Shown here: piece after piece, positions 1 through 49,193 of the stretch
Position numbering within the stretch: position 1 is the first letter of the stretch
Layout of the letters: every line of letters starts with the position of its first letter
Source: Maricaulaceae bacterium
Lineage (GTDB): Bacteria; Pseudomonadota; Alphaproteobacteria; Caulobacterales; Maricaulaceae
NCBI GenBank assembly: GCA_026126205.1
Contig: JAHCJP010000008.1
Span: forward strand, 56,391-120,390
Length of the DNA stretch: 64,000 nt
Direction: 5' to 3'
Made by a program: the position numbers and the translations under genes
Notes under the pieces: generated by a model
Databases searched by the model: none
Told to the model about the DNA's origin: nothing
What the model saw: only the letters and a program-made list of their open reading frames with translations

Positions 1-1719
1 TATGAAGAACGCAAGCGTGTCGTCGATTTGCAGGAGGTCTCTTGGCATGAGCAGCAAGCAACCGAATGCTATCATGGCGGACGCAACGAGCAGTTCTGGT
101 TTGGTCCCGCTTTCGAAGACGATTGGATCGATTACGATCTATCAAGCGCCTATCCGACCGCAATGGGACTGATCCGCAAACCTGATTGGAAACGGGCGTT
201 CGTCACCACTCGCATTTCGAAGTTCCAACCCGATGTTCTCGGCGTCGCCAATGTTGAGTTCGAATTTCCCGAGCATGTCCGTTTTCCGACCTTGCCTGTG
301 CGAACCGACAATGGCCTGATCTTTCCCCGCAAGGGCGTCAGCGATTGCGCCTCTCCTGAAATCGTTTTGGCTCAAGCGCTGGGCGCCAAGCTCAAGATCA
401 GACACGGCGTTGTTGTTCCATACAGTTCGGATGAAGCCGTATTCGGTGATTTCATTGCCGACTGCATCCGTCAGCGTTCATCATTTCCGAAGGGTTCGCT
501 CGGAAACCTGTTCTGGAAAGAGCTGAGCAATGCCAGCTACGGCAAAACTGCTCAGGGATTGAGAGAAAAGCGCGTCTTCGACCTGAGGGATCGCACCACC
601 AAGCCCCTTCCTCCAAGCAAGATTACTAATCCCTACTTCGCCGCTTTCATCACCTCCTTCGTGAGAGCCGTCCTTGGCGAGATCATGAATGGGCTTCCGC
701 ATAGTTGCTGCGTATTTAGCTGTACGACCGACGGCTTCTTAACCAATGCCACTCAGCGAGAAATGGACCATGCGACGCAGGGGCGACTTGTCGCTCTCTA
801 TAGCCAAGGCCGTCAGAAGCTGACAGGCGATCCGACTGTCTTGGAGATCAAGCACAGGGTTCGCCAGCCTCTAGGTTGGAGAACCAGAGGTCAGGCGACC
901 CTTAAGCCAGGCACCGTTCCTGACGCAGGTAACGCCAATTTCGTTCTGGCAAAGGGCGGCATTCACCTGCCTGAGTACATCGAGGATACGGCTCTCGAAA
1001 ACAGCAAGATCGTTAACCTGTTTCTCAACCGATCGCCCGATGACAAGATTACATTTCGCCACAAAACAGGCGTGCGGGATATCGTCACTTTTGATGCCGA
1101 TCTTGTCGACAAAAGCCTGACGAGGCGATTGAGCATGGAGTTTGATTGGAAGCGCAAGCCGAATGCCGCTGTACAATGCGCCTCCCCTAACCATGTCGCT
1201 TTTTCCACGAAACCATGGGACACCGTCGATGAGTTCATCCTGATGCGCCAATATTGGGAGGACTTTGCGATCAAGTCCCCATTCTGCCTCAAGTCGATTG
1301 CCGACTATCGGCAGTTCGCCATCTACGTGATGACCCATTCCACTCTCGGCAAGGCGGATAGCAAATATCTACGCCGTGACGGGGGTGACTTGAAACGACT
1401 TCGTCAATCGCTCGGCGCTGCATGGCGGCATTCGAAAGCGGGCTTGACATGGCAACAGCACCAAATCTCGAATGGCAAGTTCGCTGAAATCCTTACGGAG
1501 GCAGGCATCCCCTGCAATCGGGCAGATATTGAAAATGCTTCACGCAAGCCGTTTGCACCGAAGAAGTCCCCACCGACGCCTGACGTATATGAAGCCTTGA
1601 CAAAACTGGCTCTTCAGTTTCCCACCCTTGAGGTCGATGCCTTCATTGCTAATAATAACGGTGCGATTGACCTTGTTTCCACAATCAACTCGCCCTGCCC
1701 CTTCACCTCAAGGCTATGA
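1..1719 (+). CDS. Family-B DNA polymerase, C-terminal part (5' end cut by the window edge); primer-independent PolB (piPolB)-like
   Basis: Frame 1 is open from position 1, with no stop before the TTG at 28. PolB palm motifs occur in the correct order: DYDLSSAYPTAM (motif A, Dx2SLYPS type), KELSNASYGKTAQG (motif B, Kx3NSxYG type), FSCTTDGF (motif C, DTDS type). WRTRGQ then sits where classical PolBs carry KxY, resembling the KTRG signature described for pipolin piPolBs. Confidence 0.7.
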   Translation, partial: YEERKRVVDLQEVSWHEQQATECYHGGRNEQFWFGPAFEDDWIDYDLSSAYPTAMGLIRKPDWKRAFVTTRISKFQPDVLGVANVEFEFPEHVRFPTLPVRTDNGLIFPRKGVSDCASPEIVLAQALGAKLKIRHGVVVPYSSDEAVFGDFIADCIRQRSSFPKGSLGNLFWKELSNASYGKTAQGLREKRVFDLRDRTTKPLPPSKITNPYFAAFITSFVRAVLGEIMNGLPHSCCVFSCTTDGFLTNATQREMDHATQGRLVALYSQGRQKLTGDPTVLEIKHRVRQPLGWRTRGQATLKPGTVPDAGNANFVLAKGGIHLPEYIEDTALENSKIVNLFLNRSPDDKITFRHKTGVRDIVTFDADLVDKSLTRRLSMEFDWKRKPNAAVQCASPNHVAFSTKPWDTVDEFILMRQYWEDFAIKSPFCLKSIADYRQFAIYVMTHSTLGKADSKYLRRDGGDLKRLRQSLGAAWRHSKAGLTWQQHQISNGKFAEILTEAGIPCNRADIENASRKPFAPKKSPPTPDVYEALTKLALQFPTLEVDAFIANNNGAIDLVSTINSPCPFTSRL

Positions 1720-1958
1720 AGCCCTGAACATCTCCCTTTGATAAATCGGACTTATAGACCCTCAATTTACCGAAAATGGAGTTACGGCCAATAGTTTATC
1801 TGGCAATATGACGCTGTGGTCATCCTTGCGAAATTGGCTGCCTGTAGAGCGGTGGCGCCAGTTATTCACCCTCACCCATTTTAAAATAGCATTTTTATTT
1901 ATTGCATTGTTGCGTTTTTCTTACAAATTTGCTCATAATATGCGATTAGATTTATTAA

Positions 1959-1989
1959 TTACCGCTATGAATATCCTTACCGCTGTGAA
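1959..1989. repeat. Two tandem 13-bp direct repeats (TTACCGCTATGAA / TTACCGCTGTGAA), 18-bp register, iteron-like
   Basis: Read directly: 1959-1971 and 1977-1989 match at 12 of 13 positions. They lie in the AT-rich tract between the PolB gene and the Rep-like gene. Confidence 0.5.
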
Positions 1990-2096
1990 AGTTAATATAA
2001 AATAGCTGTAAAAACAACAAATACATGCGGCTCAAGTTTTCTGATTTCATAAATATATGGTCTTCATCATATCTTTATGGGGTTCTATTGCTCACA

Positions 2097-2594
2097 ATGC
2101 ACCGCTCTCTTGCTCGTTCAATCCAGCGATCCGTTCGCCAGTGGTTCAATATCGATGACTGGCATCATCCCTTTGCGGCGACTCTGACGCTGAAACAGCG
2201 GATCGGGGGAGATGGCGGCGTGTCATCCGCTGACGAGGGCCTGACACCAGAGAGCGCCTCTCGAAACCTGCGTCATTGGCTCAATGTGATGAACAAGCAG
2301 GTCTACGGCTCCGCCGCTCAGAGGCATGGGAAGAGCCTGTCTGTTATTCCCGTGTTGGAGGGCGACCGAGACAAGCGCCTGCATTACCACCTTGCCATTG
2401 ATTGCCCAAGGGACGACCTGATCGAGGCCTTCCCCGCAATGATCGTCACTTCATGGCGGAAGACGCTGTGGGGATACGGTCAAACCGACGTGAAGCCCTG
2501 TGACAGGGGTTGGCTCACGTATATCACGAAGCTGAGGGACAAACCCGACTTCGGATCATCCATAGACTGGTTGAACTGCCACACCCCCCACTGA
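2097..2594 (+). CDS. Small HUH-superfamily Rep-like protein (rolling-circle initiator/relaxase-like), tentative
   Basis: Motifs appear in canonical HUH order: FAATLTLK (motif 1, FxTLT-like), LHYHLAID (HUH) and LTYITKLRDK (YxxK catalytic Tyr). The track ORF begins at 2025 and the ATG at 2097 is an alternative. Neither has a clear SD, so the start is uncertain. Confidence 0.45.
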   Translation: MHRSLARSIQRSVRQWFNIDDWHHPFAATLTLKQRIGGDGGVSSADEGLTPESASRNLRHWLNVMNKQVYGSAAQRHGKSLSVIPVLEGDRDKRLHYHLAIDCPRDDLIEAFPAMIVTSWRKTLWGYGQTDVKPCDRGWLTYITKLRDKPDFGSSIDWLNCHTPH

Positions 2595-2605
2595 TCGGGG
2601 GGTGT
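2581..2605 (+). other. Perfect 9-bp stem-loop (ACACCCCCC-actgatc-GGGGGGTGT) spanning the stop codon of the Rep-like gene
   Basis: The two arms are exact reverse complements and the 7-nt loop contains the TGA stop (2592-2594). No T-tract follows. It may be a terminator-like hairpin or a candidate Rep nick-site hairpin. Confidence 0.45.
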
Positions 2606-2780
2606 CGTTGATCGTTGGGTATAGACCCCTTTCACGTCACCAATCGTTTGCTGCCCCACCAGGAACCGCTCTCCAAGGCGGGTCTTGATGGATATTTATA
2701 CCCAATAGAACCAGTTAGTTAGACACTATGATAAATCAAAATGCCCCATAACACCTAAAGCGTACAGGAGAATAGCAATT

Positions 2781-3107
2781 ATGAACAATAGAACACTGAC
2801 GAATTTCAATGTTCCATCACGAACGCGCAAAAGGTTCGATGAGGTCTGCCATGCCAGTGGCAGAACGAGAACATCGGTCCTTGTTGAACTGATGGAGAAT
2901 TTCATACTGCAACAGGGACAGGTTCTCGCTGAGCGGGCAAAGCGGTTTAAGGAGGTTGACCATTCGATCCGAGAAAATCGTCGTATAATCGGCTTCAAGG
3001 ATTTTCTCACCGAACAGCCCGTCGATGAACGAACGGCCGTTCAGGGGCGTTCAAATTCGAATCTAGCCCTGCCTGATCCGATGTTTTCCGATGGGCGGAA
3101 GGAATGA
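2781..3107 (+). CDS. Ribbon-helix-helix (CopG/Arc/MetJ-type) DNA-binding protein
   Basis: The N-terminus NFNVPSRTRKRFDEVCHASGRTRTSVLVELMENFI fits the beta-strand, helix, helix pattern of RHH repressors. AGGAG lies 8-9 nt upstream of the ATG. Confidence 0.7.
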   Translation: MNNRTLTNFNVPSRTRKRFDEVCHASGRTRTSVLVELMENFILQQGQVLAERAKRFKEVDHSIRENRRIIGFKDFLTEQPVDERTAVQGRSNSNLALPDPMFSDGRKE

Positions 3108-3420
3108 TGGTGATCTCGAAATCCAGAAGCCGCGGGCGAAACAGGATTCGATCAGGATTGTACAATATGCTCCCGCTCAATCAGTTGGAATTTACGAGGG
3201 AACGGCATTGAACCTGTTACCGAACGCGAATGCTCTTTCTAGGCAAGGAAATGGCTTGATCATGATCCAATGATTTTCCCGCCCTACGAAACATTTTGCG
3301 CCCCCCATGTTCGCTCTTAAGAATTAGCTCTGCACGGAAAAACGCACGAGGGCGCTTGCCCTGCATAAATGCGAGTGCCCTTATTGCGTTCCGCCCGCCA
3401 GAAGAGGTCAGCAACCCCTC

Positions 3421-4050
3421 ATGAATCTGATCAGGTCGAAAAAGCGCGTTGCGGACCATGGGGAGGTGTTCACGCCGCCTTGGCTGGTCGAGAAAATGCT
3501 CGACCTCGTTCAGGGTGAGACAGAACGCATTGATGCGCGTTTTCTCGAACCAGCATGCGGTAGCGGAAACTTTCTCGTCCCTATCTTTCAGCGCAAACTT
3601 GCAGCGGTTGAGCTGAAGTGCGGGAAATCCGAGTTCGACAAGCGGCACTATGCGCTGCTTGGGCTGATGTGCTGCTATGGCATCGAGCTTCTGGCAGACA
3701 ACATCGACGAATGCCGCGCGAACATGCTCGAGGTGTTTGCTGCCTACCTGGATATTGATGAAACCGACGACCTCTACCGCGCCGCATCCTTCGTGCTATC
3801 ACTCAATCTCGTTCATGGTGACGCGATGACGATGAAGGATATGACGGGACAACCGATCAACGTGGTTGAATGGGGTTATCTCGGCAAAGGCAAGTTTCAG
3901 CGCCGCGATTTCCGTCTTGATGTGCTGACAGGCATGTCCAGTTTCGCAGCGGAAGACTCCCTCTTCGCGCATCTGGGCAAGCACGAGATATTCACGCCAA
4001 CATCGACCTATCCGCCTATGACCGTGCGTGATCTGGCTGGCATGGCATGA
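3421..4050 (+). CDS. Methyltransferase-like protein with the SAM-binding half only (motifs X, I and II/III present, no catalytic NPPY)
   Basis: GEVFTPPWLV (motif X) and FLEPACGSGNFL (motif I, xPxCGxGxF) are present. YGIELLADNI and LVHGDAM resemble motifs II and III. The ORF ends 209 aa in, with no (N/D/S)PP(Y/F/W) anywhere. Confidence 0.65.
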   Translation: MNLIRSKKRVADHGEVFTPPWLVEKMLDLVQGETERIDARFLEPACGSGNFLVPIFQRKLAAVELKCGKSEFDKRHYALLGLMCCYGIELLADNIDECRANMLEVFAAYLDIDETDDLYRAASFVLSLNLVHGDAMTMKDMTGQPINVVEWGYLGKGKFQRRDFRLDVLTGMSSFAAEDSLFAHLGKHEIFTPTSTYPPMTVRDLAGMA

Positions 4051-4060
4051 CAGAGGCACG

Positions 4061-5641
4061 ATGAGCTTTCAGGCGAACTTCACCCTTCGTGGCAGAAATC
4101 CCGATGTGTTGACCTGCATCGCCAACCTGTCGAATGATGAAGTTTTCACGCCACCTGAGTTCGCCAACCGCATGCTCGACACGCTCGCTGAAGCGTGGGC
4201 AGAGCGTCATGATGGTGCAGATATCTGGTCAGACAGCTCGGTTCGGTTTCTCGATCCGTTCACCAAGTCTGGTGTTTTTCTACGCGAAATCGCCACTCGC
4301 CTGATCAATGGGTTGGAAGCTGATATCCCTGACCTGCAAGAGCGTGTCGATCACATTCTGACCAAGCAGATTTATGGGATTGCGATCACGCGCCTGACCA
4401 GCTTGCTTGCCCGCCGCAGCCTCTACTGCTCGAAGTTTGCCAATGGACCGCATTCCGTTTCGACGAAGTTCGAGAATGAGAGCGGCAATATTTGGTTTGA
4501 GCGGACTGAGCACACATGGATCGGACAAAAATGCAATTTCTGTGGAGCGCCTCGCTCGCTTTTTGACCGCGATGTAGAGCTGGAAAACCACGCTTACGCC
4601 TTCATTCACACCAATGATATCAAGCACCGTCTTTCGGGGCTGTTCGGAGATGACATGCAGTTTGATGTGATTATCGGAAATCCGCCCTACCAGATGACAG
4701 GCGGAGCAGGCGGTTCGAGCGATTCTTCGATCTATCATCTGTTTGCCCAGCAGGCCTTTAAGCTCGAACCACGCTTTGTAAGCATGGTGATACCCTCTCG
4801 TTGGATGGCTGGCGGTCGCGGTCTTGATGAGTTTCGTGGGGAAATGTTGAACAGTGGTCACATACGGAATCTGGTCGATTTCCCAGACTCAAGCACAGCG
4901 TTTCCTGGAGTGCAGATCAAGGGGGGGGTCTGCTTTTTTCTGTGGGACAGTCAGCATTCAGGCACGTGTGAGGTTACACGCGTTGCGAATGGTAAGGAAC
5001 ATGTACAGCGCGCTCGGGTTTTGGGTGAGTTTGATGTTTTCATTCGGGATGAGCGCGGCTTAAGCATTCTTCGAAAAGTTCTTTCAAAGAAAGAGGCATC
5101 GATTGTTGACCTTATTTCGGGTGATACGCCCTTCGGCATTGCCACAAACTTCAAAGATTGGAACGAAAAGGATGGCGACGACAAGATTCCACTTCATCTA
5201 ATTGCCCAAAACAAGCGATCTATCGGTTTCATGAAAAGGAGTTTGATCACAAAAAATGTTGGATATCTCGACACATGGAAAGTTTTTGTTCCGAAAGCAT
5301 ATGGCGCTGGTGAATCTTTCCCCCATCAGATACTTGGACGAGAGATAGTCGCCGCGCCTCCGTCGGCATGCACTCAGACTTATCTTGTCGTCTCACCGTT
5401 CTCTTCTGAGAAAGCTGCTCGCAGTTTTGCAAGCTATTATCAAACTCGCCTTTTTCGATTCCTTGTTTCTCTCCGTAAGATCACCCAAGATGCATTGCGC
5501 TCAACTTACACTTGGGTCCCAAAACAAGCGTGGGATCAAACTTGGAGCGATAGAATTTTGTATGAAAAATACGGGATCACTCCAGAAGAGGTTTCTTACA
5601 TTGAAAGCATGATACGTCCGATGGATAGCGCAGATGGCTAA
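4061..5641 (+). CDS. N6-adenine DNA methyltransferase, gamma class (Eco57I-family-like modification subunit)
   Basis: DEVFTPPEFANRML (motif X), FLDPFTKSGVFL (motif I variant) and FDVIIGNPPYQM (motif IV) are present, followed by a long C-terminal putative target-recognition region. The start is taken at ATG 4061, 10 nt after the upstream stop. The track start at 4028 would overlap the upstream gene by 23 nt. Confidence 0.85.
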   Translation: MSFQANFTLRGRNPDVLTCIANLSNDEVFTPPEFANRMLDTLAEAWAERHDGADIWSDSSVRFLDPFTKSGVFLREIATRLINGLEADIPDLQERVDHILTKQIYGIAITRLTSLLARRSLYCSKFANGPHSVSTKFENESGNIWFERTEHTWIGQKCNFCGAPRSLFDRDVELENHAYAFIHTNDIKHRLSGLFGDDMQFDVIIGNPPYQMTGGAGGSSDSSIYHLFAQQAFKLEPRFVSMVIPSRWMAGGRGLDEFRGEMLNSGHIRNLVDFPDSSTAFPGVQIKGGVCFFLWDSQHSGTCEVTRVANGKEHVQRARVLGEFDVFIRDERGLSILRKVLSKKEASIVDLISGDTPFGIATNFKDWNEKDGDDKIPLHLIAQNKRSIGFMKRSLITKNVGYLDTWKVFVPKAYGAGESFPHQILGREIVAAPPSACTQTYLVVSPFSSEKAARSFASYYQTRLFRFLVSLRKITQDALRSTYTWVPKQAWDQTWSDRILYEKYGITPEEVSYIESMIRPMDSADG

Positions 5642-8165
5642 ACCCATCTCCGAAATCCTTGCGCCCAAGCCCGATGTGCACCCGCGCATCTATGCCTATG
5701 CGATCAAAAGCAGTTCGCATGATGGCTTGCTGAAAATCGGGCAGACCACACGCGATGTGAAGCAGCGCATTCTGGAGCAGGTGAAGACTGCGGCTATCGA
5801 GTTCAAGATCGAGCTGGATGAGCCTGCTGCGCGTGATGATGGCTCGATCATCTCAGATCACGCTGTCAGGGCCGCGCTCATAAAAAAGGGTTTCGAAAAT
5901 CCTCAGCTCGAATGGATGCGCTGCTCTGTTGCTGACGTTCAAACCGTCCTGAACGAGCTTCGGACGGGCCAGAAGCTTTCTGCCAACCGCAACGAGACGT
6001 TTCCGCCGCGACAAGAGCAAACCGAAGCCGTCGATAAAACATACGACTATTTCACGTCGATCTGGCGTGAAGATGAAACGAAGGCGCCGCGCTTTCTCTG
6101 GAATGCGAAAATGCGTTTCGGAAAAACATTCGCCACATATCAGCTTGCCAAAAAACTTGGCGCCAAGCGCGTCCTTGTCGTCACGTTCAAGCCTGCCGTT
6201 GAAGACGCTTGGCAGACAGACCTTGAATCGCATGTGGATTTCGAAGGCTGGCAATATCTGTCGCGCAAGTCTGAGAATGACCCCACCCAGATCGATGCCA
6301 ACAAGCCCGTTGTTTTCTTTGGATCGTTTCAAGACCTGCTCGGTCGTGACAAGGTGACGGGAGCGATCAAACCGCGCAACGAATGGCTGCACACGATCAA
6401 CTGGGATCTAGTCGTTTTCGACGAGTATCACTTTGGCGCATGGCGCGACACGGTGAAGGAACTGTTCGAGGGCGAAGACGATGCAAAGCGCGAAGAGAGG
6501 TTCGAATATGACGCTGGGCTGGACGAGGTAAACGACGACCTCAGCGACATTTCCGCGAACGAAGCGATCTTCCTGCCCATCACGACCCGCGCATATCTCT
6601 ATCTGTCTGGGACACCGTTCAGGGCACTGGCGACAGGCGAGTTCATCGAAGAGCAAATCTTTAACTGGACCTACACCGACGAGCAGCGCGCAAAAGCCGA
6701 TTTCGCCACCAAGCATCCCGACAAGCGCAATCCCTATGCCTCTTTGCCGCAGATGCGATTGCTCACCTATCAGATGCCTGACGAACTATTGGCAATCGCC
6801 AGTGCTGGTGAGTTCGACGAGTTCGATCTGAACGAGTTTTTCGCCGCCAAAGGGGCAGGCAAGAATGCTGCCTTCACGCACAAAAGCGACGTTCTGAAAT
6901 GGCTTGAAATCATTCGTGGCGCATATGTGCCGCAGACTGTGGATGCGCTGAAGACTGGGACGCGGCCGCCATTCCCGTATTCAGACGCAAGATTGCTGCC
7001 CTATCTCCAGCATTCGCTCTGGTTCCTGCCGAATGTCGCGGCCTGTCACGCAATGGCAAACTTGCTCGCTGAAAGGCACAACACGTTCTGGCATGGCTAC
7101 ACGGTCATTCTCGCTGCTGGATCGCAAGCAGGTATCGGCCTCGATGCGGTTCCACCTGTTCGTCACGCTATAGGTAGCGGCTTCGATACCAAAACAATCA
7201 CGCTGTCATGTGGGAAGCTGACAACTGGCGTGACGATCCCGCAGTGGTCATCGATCTTGATGCTGCGCAATCTGAAATCGCCTGAGACCTATTTCCAAGC
7301 TGCTTTCCGTGTGCAGTCTCCGTGGTCGATCAAGAATCCGCACGGTGACAATCCCAACGAAGATGAGATTATCAAGCCTGTGTGCTTCGTGTTCGACTTC
7401 GCCCCGACACGAGCATTGAGACAGCTTTCCGACTACGGCATTGGCTTGTCCCCTGGCGAAGCTAATCCCGAAAACGCTGTGAAAGAGCTTGTCTCGTTTC
7501 TGCCCGTGCTCGCTTACGATGGCGCGAACATGACGCAGATCGATGCTGGCGGCATCCTCGATATTGCGATGGCAGGCACGTCAGGCACGTTGCTGGCGCG
7601 CAAATGGGAATCCGCATTGCTCGTCAACGTCGATAACGACACCTTGCGCCGCGTGCTCGATAATCCAGAAGCGATGGCGGCTGTCGAACGGATCGAAGGC
7701 TGGCGCTCTCTTGGTGACAACATCATCGAGACGATCATCAACAAGAACGAAAAGGTCAAGGAACTAAAGAGTAAAGAGAAGAGCGAGGGGCTGTTAAAAA
7801 CCGAGAAGAAAGAGCTTAGCGAAGAGGAAAAGGAATATAAGTCAAAGCGCAAGCTTGTTCAGGAAAAACTGATCAAGTTCGCTACCCGCATTCCTGCTTT
7901 CATGTATCTCACCGATTTCCGAGAAAACACGCTTCAAGATGTGATCACTAAGCTTGAGCCTGACCTGTTTCAAGCTGTCACTGGCTTGACCGTCAGCGAT
8001 TTTCACCTGCTCGTCCGCTTGAAGGTATTCAACACAGAGCGGATGAACCAAGCTGTCTTCGCTTTCCGCCGCTATGAAGATGCGTCACTGCGCTACACGG
8101 GCATTGAGAGCCATGAAGGACTCACGCATTACGGTCTCTATGACACTGTGACAGCGAAGGAATGA
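5634..8165 (+). CDS. T5orf172 (GIY-YIG-like) domain fused to an SF2 helicase/translocase; putative restriction (Res-like) subunit
   Basis: N-terminus: RIYAYAIKSSSHDGLLKIGQTTRDVKQR...LEWMRC, the T5orf172/MUG113 pattern. Helicase motifs: MRFGKTFAT (I), LVVFDEYHF (II, DExH), YLSGTPF (III) and YFQAAFRVQSP (VI). A Lys/Glu-rich coiled-coil and a C-terminal domain follow. The start overlaps the methylase stop by 8 nt (ATGGCTAA). Confidence 0.85.
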   Translation: MAKPISEILAPKPDVHPRIYAYAIKSSSHDGLLKIGQTTRDVKQRILEQVKTAAIEFKIELDEPAARDDGSIISDHAVRAALIKKGFENPQLEWMRCSVADVQTVLNELRTGQKLSANRNETFPPRQEQTEAVDKTYDYFTSIWREDETKAPRFLWNAKMRFGKTFATYQLAKKLGAKRVLVVTFKPAVEDAWQTDLESHVDFEGWQYLSRKSENDPTQIDANKPVVFFGSFQDLLGRDKVTGAIKPRNEWLHTINWDLVVFDEYHFGAWRDTVKELFEGEDDAKREERFEYDAGLDEVNDDLSDISANEAIFLPITTRAYLYLSGTPFRALATGEFIEEQIFNWTYTDEQRAKADFATKHPDKRNPYASLPQMRLLTYQMPDELLAIASAGEFDEFDLNEFFAAKGAGKNAAFTHKSDVLKWLEIIRGAYVPQTVDALKTGTRPPFPYSDARLLPYLQHSLWFLPNVAACHAMANLLAERHNTFWHGYTVILAAGSQAGIGLDAVPPVRHAIGSGFDTKTITLSCGKLTTGVTIPQWSSILMLRNLKSPETYFQAAFRVQSPWSIKNPHGDNPNEDEIIKPVCFVFDFAPTRALRQLSDYGIGLSPGEANPENAVKELVSFLPVLAYDGANMTQIDAGGILDIAMAGTSGTLLARKWESALLVNVDNDTLRRVLDNPEAMAAVERIEGWRSLGDNIIETIINKNEKVKELKSKEKSEGLLKTEKKELSEEEKEYKSKRKLVQEKLIKFATRIPAFMYLTDFRENTLQDVITKLEPDLFQAVTGLTVSDFHLLVRLKVFNTERMNQAVFAFRRYEDASLRYTGIESHEGLTHYGLYDTVTAKE

Positions 8166-8261
8166 GCGTCAGGCAGCGAGTTAAGTATTCCTACTTTAGG
8201 ATCTGCCTCTCTTCCCGATATCGCAACCTTTTCGTTGCCCATTCGCTCATTCCAAGGGATG

Positions 8262-8297
8262 CCCGTCAAACATAAACGTTGGTTTACTTTTGACGGG
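8262..8297. promoter_or_regulatory. Inverted repeat CCCGTCAAA-N18-TTTGACGGG immediately upstream of the serine recombinase gene (candidate recombinase-binding or operator site)
   Basis: The 9-bp arms at 8262-8270 and 8289-8297 are perfect reverse complements. The repeat ends 10 nt before the ATG at 8308. Confidence 0.35.
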
Positions 8298-8307
8298 ATA
8301 CGGGGCG

Positions 8308-8940
8308 ATGGCTCGTTATGTCGCATATTTCAGGGTGTCGACGGAGAAGCAGGGAAAGTCGGGCCTCGGTCTGGCCGCCCAGCGTTCGTTGATCGAACGG
8401 TTCGTGTCCGATGGTGACGAGGTCGTTGCTGAATACGTCGAGGTGCAATCGGGCAAAAATGACGAGCGGATTGAGCTTTGGAAGGCGATCCACCACGCAA
8501 AGCGGACCGATGCAAAGCTGCTGATTGCGAAACTGGATCGATTTTCACGAAAGGTCAGCTTCATCGCCTCGATCATGGAGCAGGGAATCGGGTTGGTCGT
8601 GGCCGAGATGCCAAACGCAACGGATTTCCAACTGCACATCTTCGCCGCCCTCGCACAGGAAGAGCGTCGGTTGATTTCCGAACGGACCCGCAATGCCCTG
8701 ACCGAAGCGAAGAAGCGGGGCGTGGTTCTGGGGAAGAATGGCAAGGTTCTGGCGGAGCGAAACCGCAAGGCCGCTGATGAACGCGCGGAAGCGCTGCGCC
8801 CCACCGTTATTCCGATGGTTGAACAGGGGCTGTCGATCAGTGGGATCGCCCGCCGCCTGAACATGGAAGGGATCAGGACAGCACGGGGGAGCAGGTTCTA
8901 CCCGCAACAGGTCTCCGACATGATCCGTCGTATGGGATAG
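8308..8940 (+). CDS. Serine recombinase (resolvase/invertase family)
   Basis: MARYVAYFRVSTEKQ carries the catalytic Ser motif. The resolvase core reads LLIAKLDRFSR and the C-terminal HTH reads GLSISGIARRLNMEGIRT. The internal ATG at 8308 was chosen over the track start at 8290. Confidence 0.9.
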   Translation: MARYVAYFRVSTEKQGKSGLGLAAQRSLIERFVSDGDEVVAEYVEVQSGKNDERIELWKAIHHAKRTDAKLLIAKLDRFSRKVSFIASIMEQGIGLVVAEMPNATDFQLHIFAALAQEERRLISERTRNALTEAKKRGVVLGKNGKVLAERNRKAADERAEALRPTVIPMVEQGLSISGIARRLNMEGIRTARGSRFYPQQVSDMIRRMG

Positions 8941-8941
8941 G

Positions 8942-8967
8942 AAAAAGGGGGCTTCCGCCCCCTTTTT
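8942..8967. terminator. Bidirectional rho-independent terminator between convergent genes
   Basis: AAAAA-GGGGGC-ttcc-GCCCCC-TTTTT is a perfect 6-bp GC stem. An A-tract lies upstream and a T-tract downstream. It sits between the recombinase stop (8940) and the stop of the minus-strand gene (8991). Confidence 0.75.
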
Positions 8968-8990
8968 GGTTCACCCGTGCGCTGATGCTG

Positions 8991-9362
8991 TCATTTTGCG
9001 GCTTTGACGAATTTCTGACGGATATCCGCCGCCGCCTTGGTCAGTTGATCGTCGAAATCGCCTTTCAGGACCATTCCCCTGACCGTACACAGCGCCGCCT
9101 CAACGATGTCGAGGTCAGCGCACTGGATCGAGAACATCCCCTTCTTGAGTTCAATCGGTTGGCGCCCGTATTTGATTGGGAGGAAGTACGTTCCCGCTTC
9201 ATCCATCCAGACCCAGGCAGCGCGAGGCTGTGCGCCCTCGATCATCTGGCGGACATAACTGATTTGCTGGTCGATACTGCGGACCAGTTTATGGCGGCGC
9301 TGGACGTTGGCGGACGCCTTGTCGGGGCGGGTGGTGGAGGCGAACTTGAGTTCCATCGACAT
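8991..9362 (-). CDS. Hypothetical protein encoded directly downstream of the integrase
   Basis: The ORF track gives 8991-9530, but that N-terminal extension overlaps the integrase 3' end. MSMELKF at 9362 starts 58 nt after the integrase stop. I recognise no motif in it. Confidence 0.55.
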   Translation of the reverse strand: MSMELKFASTTRPDKASANVQRRHKLVRSIDQQISYVRQMIEGAQPRAAWVWMDEAGTYFLPIKYGRQPIELKKGMFSIQCADLDIVEAALCTVRGMVLKGDFDDQLTKAAADIRQKFVKAAK

Positions 9363-9420
9363 ATCTCCGTGGTTGATATGTCGGGCGTCCCGCCATTCGA
9401 ATTTAAGGTCCACGGGGTTA

Positions 9421-10647
9421 TTACTGACCACCGAACTGCTGGAGGTTGATCGCCATCTCACGGCTGAGAGGGAGATTGCGGGCGTAAAACCGCTCGATCT
9501 GCTCAACCGAGGTTCCAGCGTTCTTCGCAAGATTGTAGATGTTCACCTGCCCGTGTGACAGGATCAAGCGCATGCAGATCGCTGTGTGGCGGAGGGAATA
9601 GATCGTATACTTGAGTCCTGCCTCTGGGTCATTCTTGACACCAGCCCTTTTCAAGACTTCCCGAAACTGGCGCTGCACGATCTTCGAGACTGTCTCACGA
9701 TTGGGATAGTCGGGAAAGAACAGGTAATTGCTAGGCTTGGCGTTGGGGTTGCGGCCTTTGATCCGCTGATAGACACCGACCGCTGCGGGCATCGTGTTGG
9801 CGACCCTGAATCCTGTCTTGCCGTTGCGAATGGTCAGCAGCAACCGCTTGGGATCTTCCGCAACGGCCACTTCATCATGCTTGAGGGCGTAAATTTCTGA
9901 GATGATCGGGCGAACGAACGAATGCGTGACGAACAAAATAAGATCATACAGTTCATCGGTCACGGGAACGCCGCGGACGAGCACATTTTCTCTCGCCATG
10001 GCCTTGGCGGCTCGAAGGACCGCTTGATAGGCGTCGTCCTCTTCCGCCACCAACGGGTGAAACGGGAGATAGGAACGAGGCGTGTCCTTCTGGCGGGTTC
10101 TCGGTGTCGCAGGGACGATATCGATTACGCCATCATCCCGAGCCACCTTCAGCACGTTGCGGAAAGTGGCTGTCAGCATATTGCGGGTTGAGGTCGAAAG
10201 ATCAGGGCGCTGCTTGGACAGTTTGTCCATGAACTCCTGATAGTCTCGGGTTTTCAGATCCCGAATATCCTTATGTCCGAATGCTTTGATCAAACCCCAT
10301 TCAGCGTTGTTCAGAAACAGCTGGGTGTTGCGGGCATAGTTGGCGTTGCGCTCACCGTTTTCGACAAGCCGCTGCCCTTTGCTGATCAACCTCGTTGCGT
10401 AATGGCGGAAGCTGAATTCGCGCTCAACACGCTTCTCAGCCCCGAGCAGTTCAAATGCCAACTCCCTTGCCACCTGCTTGGCTTTGACCCGTGATGTTTC
10501 TTGGGTTGAGCATACAATATACCGCCTGATACGAGGATCGCGGATGCGGGCTTGCCAATAGGGGCTAGCTCTGACTTTATAAATCGCCAATCCGCGATGT
10601 ATCGTGATGATCTTGCCATCGAGGGCGTTTTTGGATTTAGTTGGCAT
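9421..10647 (-). CDS. int: Tyrosine recombinase / phage-type integrase
   Basis: The C-terminal catalytic region has YSLRHTAICMRL (HxxR box) and SVEQIERFYARNL (catalytic Tyr). The N-terminal arm/core-binding region is about 150 aa. The gene is adjacent to the tRNA-derived att sequence. Confidence 0.9.
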   Translation of the reverse strand: MPTKSKNALDGKIITIHRGLAIYKVRASPYWQARIRDPRIRRYIVCSTQETSRVKAKQVARELAFELLGAEKRVEREFSFRHYATRLISKGQRLVENGERNANYARNTQLFLNNAEWGLIKAFGHKDIRDLKTRDYQEFMDKLSKQRPDLSTSTRNMLTATFRNVLKVARDDGVIDIVPATPRTRQKDTPRSYLPFHPLVAEEDDAYQAVLRAAKAMARENVLVRGVPVTDELYDLILFVTHSFVRPIISEIYALKHDEVAVAEDPKRLLLTIRNGKTGFRVANTMPAAVGVYQRIKGRNPNAKPSNYLFFPDYPNRETVSKIVQRQFREVLKRAGVKNDPEAGLKYTIYSLRHTAICMRLILSHGQVNIYNLAKNAGTSVEQIERFYARNLPLSREMAINLQQFGGQ

Positions 10648-10745
10648 GAGTTCCGCTTAGCCCAAAACAGGTTTTCGGTCAAAAGTTATAAAGTGAAGCT
10701 ATAAAGATATCGATAACCTATTGAAATACAAGGTGACTCTAGCCC

Positions 10746-10790
10746 CTCTTAATCAGCGGGTCCTAGGTTCGAATCCTAGTGGGCGCACCA
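10746..10790 (+). tRNA. 3' half of a tRNA gene (anticodon loop to CCA); probable att site, not an intact tRNA
   Basis: The T-arm is CTAGG-TTCGAAT-CCTAG. The 3' acceptor strand TGGGCGC is followed by discriminator A and an encoded CCA (10788-10790). The loop-like CTCTTAA followed by TCAGC and GGGTC would fit a Lys(CUU)-type anticodon arm. There is no complementary 5' anticodon-stem strand, no D-arm and no 5' acceptor strand (GCGCCCA) upstream. Confidence 0.6.
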
Positions 10791-48700: not shown

Positions 48701-48761
48701 GGCCGGCGCCCGCTCCGCTCGGTCACCTTTCATTCAGCCGTGTGTGCGCTATATTAAGCGT

Positions 48762-49081
48762 GTCCGCCCTCGGGCGGACTATGACGATAAACGCGCGCGT
48801 AATAACCGGACTGGACCCGGGTGCGATGCCCGGCGGCTCCACCAACACCTTTCTCCCATTGGGGAGACTTATGGGGCCGAAACAGGATCGACAGACGGGT
48901 AAAGGTGTTTGCTTTCGTCCGAATGGGCTCCGTCAAAAGCCCGCTATCAAAGTTGCCAACGACAACTTTGCTGAAGAGGTCGCTCTCGCCGCGTAAGCGG
49001 TGCGAGATATCTCGCTCTAAAGTCCCGGGGCCTTAGCGACCCCGGGCGGGGTCCGGGGGGCGCCTGGCAACAGAAGCCCCC
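48762..49081 (+). ncRNA. ssrA: Circularly permuted (two-piece) tmRNA gene: acceptor piece about 48762-48844, spacer 48845-48872, coding piece about 48873-49081
   Basis: The tag reading frame GCC AAC GAC AAC TTT GCT GAA GAG GTC GCT CTC GCC GCG TAA (48955-48996) encodes ANDNFAEEVALAA. The tmRNA 5' end GGGGCCGAAACAGGATCGAC is at 48873. The T-arm CCGGG-TGCGATG-CCCGG and CGGCTCC-A-CCA (ending at 48844) lie upstream of that 5' end. The 5' GGGGCCG pairs with CGGCTCC, including the G3:U70 alanine identity pair. The outer ends of the two pieces are estimated from terminal hairpins, not determined. Confidence 0.85.
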
Positions 49082-49193
49082 CACTTCATCCTGCCCTGCC
49101 CTTCCCTTCCCTGACATTTTCCGACATTCGCGCCTGCACCCTCGTGCGCCGCGCGCAGCTCTGGCAAGTTTCGCCAAACGCCGGAGCGCGCCC

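Follow-up and report, generated by a model that had tools for sequence, protein, structure and literature searches.

The 64,000-nucleotide (nt) stretch of Maricaulaceae DNA analyzed here, which we call the window, carries three adjacent genes on its forward strand: g1 (3421-4050), g2 (4061-5641, counted from an ATG start) and g3 (5634-8165). They encode a half-methyltransferase of 209 amino acids (aa), a complete methyltransferase of 526 aa and a nuclease-translocase of 843 aa, and we consider it probable that the three form one ATP-dependent defense complex of the restriction-modification (R-M) type, carried as cargo by a pipolin-like island. An original prediction had placed the genes on one strand, separated by a 10-nt gap and then an 8-nt overlap, and had proposed a single operon; the coordinates match in both the table of open reading frames (ORFs) and the raw sequence. 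The g1 stop is a TGA at 4048-4050, and the 10-nt spacer before g2 holds a GAGG ribosome-binding site, read from the sequence at 4053-4056 on the + strand; an in-frame GTG lies upstream of the g2 ATG, at 4028. The g2 stop and g3 start share eight nt, ATGGCTAA, at 5634-5641. Among close homologous loci (the close set) from which both genes of a pair were extracted, the 8-nt g2/g3 overlap is found in 55, and in 42 the g1 stop and g2 start overlap by 4 nt, where the window has a spacer. These conserved stop/start junctions point to translational coupling and, together with a gene order and strand that are also conserved across loci, bear out the single operon. Promoter and terminator scans gave matches at chance level only.

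The third gene is built of three parts, all on the + strand: a T5orf172/GIY-YIG-type nuclease domain (residues ~16-112; 5679-5969), a two-lobed superfamily 2 (SF2; Snf2-like/ResIII) ATPase-translocase (residues ~120-600; 5991-7433) and a helical C-terminal domain with a K/E-rich coiled coil, delimited on an AlphaFold2 (AF2) model (residues ~640-825; 7551-8108). Pfam matched T5orf172 (PF10544) on residues 20-109 (E 2.5e-7, 31.5 bits against a cut-off of 20) and ResIII (E 8e-6), and in PADLOC g3 covers positions 180-676 of the model PDLC03626. Both the alignment and the AF2 model drew on 43 diverse homologs, with identity down to 31%. Across these, Y20 and K34 of the T5orf172 domain are invariant, and G36, T38, R45, D75 and E93 are at least 90% conserved; we take the Tyr/Arg/Glu set, which includes Y20, R45 and E93, to be a GIY-YIG catalytic-type constellation by analogy. 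With a profile match and a conserved Tyr, Arg and metal-binding Glu, the N-terminal domain is assigned to the GIY-YIG/T5orf172 superfamily on sequence grounds. Nucleases with a T5orf172 domain feature in the literature on phage-satellite conflict and are reportedly active enzymes. In the ATPase, the invariant residues are K164 (GKT), D263-E264-H266 (DEYH), G326-T327 (SGT), and Q555 and R559 (QAAFRVQ).

The g3 model (predicted local distance difference test score, pLDDT, 79) has a small alpha/beta N-terminal domain, two RecA-like lobes, a coiled coil and a helical domain, with C-terminal helices at 697-750 and 752-822. When the full-length model was run through Foldseek against the PDB, the SF2 core dominated the matches, which were to Snf2-family remodelers, ZorD, RadD, SauUSI and HsdR of EcoR124I, at E 1e-8 to 1e-10. 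By its predicted fold, the nearest neighbors of g3 are double-stranded DNA translocases, several of them restriction or defense motors (SauUSI, HsdR EcoR124I, ZorD). PDB sequence and profile searches with g3 gave just a short match to RapA motif II, and those with g1, g2 and a g1 profile gave just methyltransferase motif X-I matches and otherwise nothing useful. The motifs that the original prediction had quoted for g3 (LLKIGQTTRDVKQR...LEWMRC, GKT, DEYH, SGTPF and QAAFRVQ) are all present, and the order it had read, an N-terminal T5orf172/GIY-YIG domain, an SF2 ATPase and a helical C-terminal domain, is upheld by the conserved residues and the AF2 model. Its failure to find a PD-(D/E)xK motif also held, as Pfam finds no such domain in any of the three proteins. 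Two g3 homologs, P0242 (residues ~850-1094) and P0297 (~860-1122), carry an extra C-terminal domain with a GDGDF...WDxK pattern, which suggests that a PD-(D/E)xK nuclease accompanies the T5orf172 domain at the N-terminus. A third homolog, P0248, has a 250-aa N-terminal extension that we considered as a g1-g3 fusion and rejected, because the extension is low-complexity sequence.

The second gene is predicted to encode a complete gamma-class N6-adenine methyltransferase, as had been proposed, and the motifs then quoted for it (EVFTPPE, DPFTKSGVF and GNPPYQ) are in place; its family is Eco57I. Pfam matched Eco57I (PF07669) at E 1.8e-36 (126 bits against a cut-off of 25.3), and PADLOC matched it to the MTase_II model PDLC03375 (4.5e-51) and to positions 1007-1359, the C-terminal part, of the IIG model PDLC03626 (4.2e-41). 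The motifs run in the order X-I-II-IV, followed by a recognition region, which is the gamma-class arrangement; here they read EVFTPPE (X), DPFTKSGVF (I) and FDVIIGNPPYQ (IV), and EVFTPPE, (F)LDPxTKSGxF and GNPPYQ are kept in all 69 of the 69 g2 homologs. Motif I has a single Gly and presumably resembles the M.TaqI version. Motif II ends, family-wide, in Gly or Ala instead of the expected acidic residue (FGIGIT/YGIAIT). Identity is uneven along the protein: in the close set the median is 76% over residues 1-130 and 34% over residues 291-440. On this pattern, residues 291-440 read as a hypervariable C-terminal target-recognition region on a constant scaffold, as is seen in R-M systems. Between motif II and NPPY lies a conserved Cys/His-rich insert (residues ~113-195; 4397-4645) with Cys122, Cys157-x2-Cys160 and several His, which may be a zinc-binding element.

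The first gene is best described as encoding a non-catalytic half-methyltransferase that would bind S-adenosylmethionine (SAM), to judge from the established roles of its motifs. It has motifs X (HGEVFTPP), I (EPACGSGNFL), II (YGIEL) and III (HGDA); after these come a conserved hairpin, EWGY...KGKFQRRDF, and a disordered tail in which L181-F182 is invariant. The original prediction had reported EVFTPP and EPACGSGNFL without an NPPY and had called the protein a catalytically incomplete methyltransferase paralog. Both motifs are present, motifs II and III are additions to that description, and the catalytic motif IV, (D/N/S)PP(Y/F/W/H), is absent from 125/125 g1 homologs. The paralogy is likewise supported: g1 and the g2 N-terminus are 40% identical across the first ~60 residues of the methyltransferase core (motifs X-I), and a g1/g2 profile-profile comparison gave 88.6% probability. 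Pfam matches g1 weakly and just to the N-terminal part of N6_Mtase/MmeI_Mtase (positions 23-66 only of the N6_Mtase profile), and its PADLOC matches are confined to methyltransferase N-terminal motifs. The homologs listed are mostly ~205-250 aa long, and one with 100% identity to g1 belongs to a Maricaulaceae metagenome-assembled genome.

We then aligned g1 homologs spanning 37-100% identity, including those from a third homology search seeded with a distant-locus g1. In this mixed alignment HGEVFT (X), E-P-A-C-G-x-G-N-F-L (I), Y86-G87, G133-D134-A135, W151, R161 and D163 are invariant or nearly so, position 89 is Glu or Asp, and E150 is at least 90% conserved. The AF2 model of g1 (pLDDT 84, predicted template modeling score 0.81) has the first three strands of a Rossmann fold (beta1-beta3) with their helices and then a beta-hairpin (147-165) that holds the conserved EW...KGKFQRRDF segment. 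The tail, residues 172-189, is modeled with low confidence and includes L181-F182; short motifs conserved within disordered tails typically serve as docking peptides, and this one may act as such. Foldseek returned weak matches to the g1 model, all to the SAM-binding half of gamma-class adenine methyltransferases, with CamA best (E 0.08), followed by DrdV, PglX and LlaBIII; LlaGI was matched weakly as well. Over residues 134-208 (3820-4047), which include the hairpin segment EWGYLGKGKFQRRDFRLDVL, g1 weakly matched PDB 4mjf, a 263-aa hypothetical protein, at E 0.19, below significance. A comparison of the g1 tail (FQRRDFRLDVLT...HEIFTP) with the g2 N-terminus (FTLRGRNPDVLT...DEVFTP) gave an hhalign probability of 2-5%, also below significance.

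The trio is a member of a very large family and not a one-off. Clustered at 90% identity, there are at least 8000 homologous clusters for g1 and at least 8000 for g3, and for g3 the number at 50% identity is about 4000. Among species-representative genomes, a scan gave at least 592 matching stretches, the best 80 of which were used for cross-phylum comparisons of g3. These 80 are 77-82% identical to g3 and come from Pseudomonadota, Chloroflexota, Acidobacteriota, Planctomycetota, Actinomycetota, Bacillota, Verrucomicrobiota, Nitrospirota, Bacteroidota, Cyanobacteriota, Armatimonadota and candidate phyla. A second, alignment-based scan seeded with distant g3 homologs found loci with g3 at 37-80% identity; a metagenome scan with a single distant g3 homolog found nothing, whereas the alignment-based scan did find loci. 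The trio is also present on plasmids of Sphingopyxis, Rhizobium, Deinococcus, Corynebacterium and others, and the same gene order is seen in the neighborhoods of Sandarakinorhabdus, Sinorhizobium meliloti and Uliginosibacterium. Complete E. coli genomes gave no match, and only five phage records were matched.

Co-occurrence across genomes had been put forward as a check on the original prediction. We restricted the count to loci that extend 2.7 kb or more upstream of g3 and found g1-g2-g3 in the same order and on the same strand in 64/65 close loci and 45/46 distant loci, such that the trio recurs in 109/111 independent loci. The first exception, L054, has decayed: its g2 is truncated at the 5' end to a 337-aa fragment that begins at NPPY. 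The other, L147 (1513-8430), is the sole intact-looking locus that lacks an adjacent g1. In that locus, the g2-g3 pair comes right after a fusion gene for a C5-cytosine methyltransferase and a possible nuclease gene, which belong to an unrelated C5-methyltransferase system.

The three proteins are conserved to different degrees, with close-set median identities of 79% for g3, 73% for g1 and 53% for g2. The GC content at third codon positions (GC3) of g3 ranges from 0.36 to 0.89 (L007-L086), the GC content of the genes correlates with that of their flanks (r = 0.76), and nucleotide identity to the window is only 70-84%. Because GC3 tracks the flanks and nucleotide identity is low, the genes appear to have been long resident and ameliorated, with their proteins under strong purifying selection. 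We therefore rejected very recent transfer as the sole cause of the 77-82% cross-phylum identity. Purifying selection on g3 is unusually strong for a mobile defense gene.

Some relatives join g3 and g2 in one chain. PADLOC gave a first hint of this, as g3 and g2 match different parts of the 1359-position model PDLC03626. Two proteins, P0360 and P0372, are direct g3-g2 fusions in which the g3 C-terminal domain runs into the g2 N-terminus (...ANLSNEEVFTP...). A plasmid search with g3 also found 1456-aa proteins from Firmicutes (Enterococcus, Lactococcus and others) that are 29-34% identical over g3 residues ~8-663, with the similarity stopping near residue 663. The plasmid-borne fusion of Enterococcus durans (L167, 4250-9359) consists of T5orf172, a helicase, a long linker and an Eco57I-type methyltransferase with NPPY. 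In the Lactococcus cremoris fusion (plasmid p1196B; L169, 2036-7100), a different N-terminal domain replaces T5orf172. Directly upstream of both fusions is a gene of 230-248 aa annotated as 'N-6 DNA methylase', which is a g1 homolog (36-44% identity, E 1e-34 to 6e-39). The fusions lend support to a physical g3-g2 complex in which the g3 C-terminal domain would serve as the tether. By comparison of these gene layouts, g1 appears to be a partner that stays separate and is retained whatever the arrangement of the other parts.

About 15 loci carry extra genes between g1 and g2 or between g2 and g3. Judged by eye, these are ImmA/IrrE-like plus DUF4411-like, KilA/Bro-like, DUF1016/YhcG-like, AlbA_2-like, RhuM-like plus Fic, VapBC, MazF and DinD-like genes, with insert coordinates of 3745-5427 in L007, 3165-5048 in L013, 2996-4949 in L011, 4823-7000 in L080, 3727-5400 in L045, 6134-7000 in L009, 3583-4459 in L014 and 4514-5400 in L069. 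We considered whether the inserted DNA might be duplicated g2 specificity genes, as in a shufflon, and rejected this, since the insertions consist of unrelated accessory genes. Genes of the DUF1016, RhuM/DinD and Fic/DOC kinds have been reported between the core genes of Type I systems, and the RhuM-, Fic-, DUF1016- and DinD-like genes (by eye) between subunit genes in some of our loci are thus a likeness to Type I.

We next compared the trio with established R-M classes and, as the original prediction had maintained, found that no textbook type fits, with the defining features of Type I, ISP, III and IIG lacking. It resembles a Type I system in being a multi-subunit, ATP-dependent translocating nuclease with a gamma-class methyltransferase, and in pairing a variable specificity determinant with motor and methyltransferase parts that are conserved. 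However, Type I systems have an HsdS with two recognition domains, whereas here the variable C-terminus of g2 supplies the recognition region; the earlier claim that the module has no separate specificity subunit stands, as there is none in the operon and none of the three proteins matches Methylase_S. HsdR couples its SF2 motor to a PD-(D/E)xK nuclease and g3 couples one to a T5orf172/GIY-YIG nuclease; the HsdR of EcoR124I is just one of many SF2 structural matches of g3. The HsdM_N-type methyltransferase of Type I is also absent, and g1 has no Type I counterpart. In Type III systems, Mod is a beta-class methyltransferase with a central recognition domain, and Res carries its PD-(D/E)xK nuclease at the C-terminus. 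The trio shares with them a helicase-nuclease subunit in the ResIII Pfam family and a methyltransferase with its own recognition domain, but its methyltransferase is gamma-class with a C-terminal recognition region, and its GIY-YIG nuclease is N-terminal. Type IIG/IIL enzymes (Eco57I, MmeI) combine nuclease and methyltransferase in one chain and have no NTPase; here, in contrast, g2 lacks a nuclease domain and an SF2 ATPase with intact Walker motifs is present.

A Type ISP enzyme is a single polypeptide with an Mrr-family (PD-(D/E)xK) nuclease, a helicase, a coupler, a methyltransferase and a recognition domain. The trio has the same kinds of part (nuclease, SF2 translocase, gamma-class methyltransferase and recognition domain), places the nuclease N-terminal to the motor, and has fused g3-g2 relatives on Lactococcus and Enterococcus plasmids. 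It differs in being split over three polypeptides, in its GIY-YIG/T5orf172 nuclease and in the extra half-methyltransferase g1; the fused relatives differ from Type ISP too, as a g1-like partner gene is present. LlaBIII and LlaGI, matched only weakly by g1 in Foldseek, are absent from the top 50 matches of g3. Of the methyltransferase-containing defense systems BREX, DISARM, MADS and Hma (signature proteins PglZ/BrxC, DrmB, Mad and Hma), PADLOC and NCBIfam showed just weak motif-level matches of g1 and g2 to PglX and mad2 (E 1e-3 to 5e-7), and the trio's neighbors on the island serve replication and recombination. A PADLOC run returned no dedicated system model for the trio, NCBIfam names none of the three proteins, and literature searches for the architecture found no published description of the trio or of g1. 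The domain association seen in g3 is not new, because it is covered by Makarova et al.

To judge from the passages that describe it, the nearest described analog is the DnmA(YeeA)-YeeB-YeeC cluster. There, an MmeI-like methyltransferase without a nuclease is accompanied by separate genes for an SF2 helicase (YeeB) and a T5orf172/GIY-YIG protein (YeeC). Both systems are operons of three genes that between them encode a gamma-class single-chain methyltransferase, which carries its own recognition domain, as well as an SF2 helicase and a nuclease-type T5orf172/GIY-YIG domain; neither has a separate specificity subunit, and both occur in horizontally acquired, low-GC regions. According to the same passages, YeeB and YeeC are set apart, whereas here one polypeptide holds both the helicase and, at its N-terminus, the T5orf172 nuclease; the methyltransferase here is of the Eco57I family, and its MmeI_Mtase match, at 18 bits, falls short of the cut-off; and here g1, which the DnmA-cluster passages do not mention, makes up the third gene. 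Morgan et al. are cited as proposing that DnmA-YeeB-YeeC is a Type I-like, single-strand-modifying system. In Vibrio crassostreae, deletion of dnmA or yeeB is described as having raised sensitivity to some phages (PMC9973331).

Taken as an R-M complex, the trio would probably work as follows. The variable C-terminal region of g2 would read a short DNA site, and its NPPY active site would make N6-methyladenine and so mark host DNA; methylation may, as the Eco57I, MmeI and Type ISP families suggest by analogy, fall on only one strand of an asymmetric site. We propose that g3 docks on g2 through its C-terminal helical domain and, at unmodified sites, would translocate on double-stranded DNA with its Snf2-like SF2 motor and cut with its N-terminal T5orf172/GIY-YIG nuclease. 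Function would then be like that of Type I or Type ISP enzymes, though the nuclease has another fold and the subunits are split, and it would give anti-phage activity. The g1 protein would be an obligate third subunit with a truncated fold that binds SAM and cannot methylate. Most likely it would bind g2, or the g2-g3 assembly, through the conserved hairpin and the LF tail motif, and either support methyltransferase activity or couple SAM availability to the choice between modification and restriction.

A catalytic methyltransferase with a conserved non-catalytic paralog as a separate protein is familiar from heterodimers such as METTL3-METTL14, in which the inactive partner has usually lost SAM binding. 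The likeness lies in a catalytic methyltransferase that stands beside a conserved, separately encoded, non-catalytic paralog; g1 differs in that its SAM-binding motifs are all retained and the catalytic loop and remainder of the fold are gone, and its interaction with g2 is putative. More tentatively, g1 may be a new kind of R-M subunit, obligatory in split and fused forms alike, that acts as a SAM sensor or switch between methylation and restriction. As a sensor it might, for example, license methylation by g2, or release g3 when phage SAM-degrading enzymes deplete SAM. If so, the family would count as an R-M type in its own right, with a distinct mechanism, and not as a variant of Type I or Type ISP.

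Several points weigh against an R-M complex of this kind. Searches of the literature found no experimental study of any member of the family, and in B. subtilis the analogous DnmA-YeeB-YeeC system is described as giving no restriction or phage protection. The chains of LlaGI and LlaBIII were undetected in PDB searches with g3, the g3 profile and the Lactococcus 1456-aa fusion. Given a motif II without its acidic residue and a TaqI-like motif I, SAM binding by g2 may be unusual. For g1, the best Foldseek match stands at E 0.08, with matches covering only ~100-130 residues; L147 looks intact with no g1 beside it; and the physical tie of g1 to g2 or g3 is a putative one.

The B. subtilis result is also what favors an alternative in which the operon works as an epigenetic or orphan-methyltransferase module or survives as a relic, with a regulatory g2 and a g3 that is inactive or does not restrict. 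In the passages on that cluster, DnmA is presented as a regulatory orphan methyltransferase whose genes conferred neither phage protection nor plasmid restriction. We regard this alternative as unlikely, as g3 keeps its nuclease-type and ATPase residues invariant or almost so in hundreds of species from many phyla, g2 shows an R-M-like diversification of its recognition region, plasmids and islands carry the module along with other defense-type genes, and the V. crassostreae deletions, as described, made homologs of the same analog matter for phage sensitivity. It is similarly doubtful, and we would give it little weight, that the trio just belongs to Type ISP, Type I or Type III, as a member that has diverged and split, and needs no separate description. 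That account draws on the PDLC03626 model, which matches both the g3 helicase and the g2 C-terminus, on the 29-34% identity of g3 over ~600 residues to single-chain proteins of Lactococcus and Enterococcus plasmids, and on a functional logic common to those classes. It is opposed by a nuclease that is GIY-YIG/T5orf172 and not Mrr/PD-(D/E)xK, by the lack of HsdS, by a gamma-class methyltransferase in place of a beta-class Mod, and by g1, an extra conserved subunit with no counterpart; the sequence searches that missed LlaGI and LlaBIII count against it as well.

Two further alternatives concern g1. It could be an active second methyltransferase with a non-canonical motif that modifies the second strand of an asymmetric site or another substrate, in the manner of Type IIS systems. 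Its SAM-binding motifs are intact, and the conserved E150-W151 pair, in which W151 does not vary, lies, on our reading, linearly where motif IV would be. However, g1 has neither a Pro-Pro motif nor a target-recognition domain, its modeled fold ends after the hairpin, at 209 aa it is far shorter than the complete g2 (526 aa), and the profile alignment pairs EW...KGK..R..F with post-NPPY sequence of g2, which indicates that the catalytic loop has been deleted. We therefore consider a second active enzyme very unlikely. The other alternative, that g1 is a functionless remnant, the decaying 5' fragment of a duplicated methyltransferase gene beside a real system made of g2 and g3, is the most improbable that we weighed. 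A remnant would explain why g1 resembles the N-terminal 60 residues of g2 at 40% identity and lacks a catalytic motif, and truncated methyltransferases do occur in the family, such as the 337-aa g2 fragment of L054. A decaying fragment would not be expected in 109/111 loci, with the homologs listed mostly keeping ~205-250 aa, with motif residues invariant from 37 to 100% identity, with translational coupling to g2 and with a confidently predicted fold. Moreover, g1 persists beside the fused, two-gene variant in Firmicutes, and synonymous sites have drifted with host GC as the protein was conserved.

The family to which the trio belongs is apparently a widespread, uncharacterized variant of ATP-dependent R-M. 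It is a familiar kind of system made distinctive by its architecture, its extra subunit g1 and its sheer prevalence. In current annotation the genes are labeled only one at a time, as 'N-6 DNA methylase', 'Eco57I ... domain-containing protein', and 'DEAD/DEAH box helicase' or 'GIY-YIG nuclease'. Characterization would add a common, overlooked R-M architecture and an ATP-dependent restriction enzyme built on a GIY-YIG-type nuclease, and it would answer a concrete mechanistic question, namely the role of a SAM-binding, non-catalytic methyltransferase half in telling host from non-host DNA. With specificity placed in one swappable region of g2, and g1 and g3 conserved, the family could also help methylome interpretation and enzyme engineering.

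The operon lies in a low-GC island: the window is 53% GC from position 1 to ~10,700 and 68% in the rest, rising from one level to the other just past an integrase gene. Upstream are a family-B DNA polymerase gene cut by the window start (28-1719, +; Pfam DNA_pol_B_2, 9e-11) that resembles piPolB, a Rep ORF2/G2P-like gene (2025-2594) and, before g1, an ORF of 108 aa (2781-3107, +) with no Pfam match. Downstream are a small serine recombinase, or resolvase (8290-8940, +; Pfam Resolvase, 1e-24), an ORF of 179 aa with no Pfam match (8991-9530, -) and, next to the latter, a tyrosine recombinase at the island edge (9421-10647, -), the integrase, with a weak Pfam Phage_integrase match. The module thus sits, as had been stated, between the replication and recombination genes of a mobile element. 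The positions of the 108-aa and 179-aa ORFs would fit an excisionase or regulator. Just beyond the integrase, a stretch of ~50 nt read from the sequence (10741-10790, +) resembles a tRNA 3' end (GGTTCGAATCC...CACCA) and is probably an att repeat at the island boundary. ARAGORN and Rfam called no full tRNA at 10741-10790, and a repeat search in the window gave short two-copy matches at chance level and no island-bounding repeat.

From its gene content, window 1-10790 looks like the right-hand part of a pipolin whose left end and intact tRNA would lie outside the window. A PolB-type gene, recombinases and a boundary tRNA fragment are all present, in agreement with published accounts of pipolins. 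Alphaproteobacterial pipolins integrate into tRNA genes and carry defense systems (PMC11551731). Away from the island, an alphaproteobacterial host is marked by the sole RNA gene called in the window, a two-piece (permuted) transfer-messenger RNA of the alphaproteobacterial type at 48724-49085, with the tag peptide ANDNFAEEVALAA.

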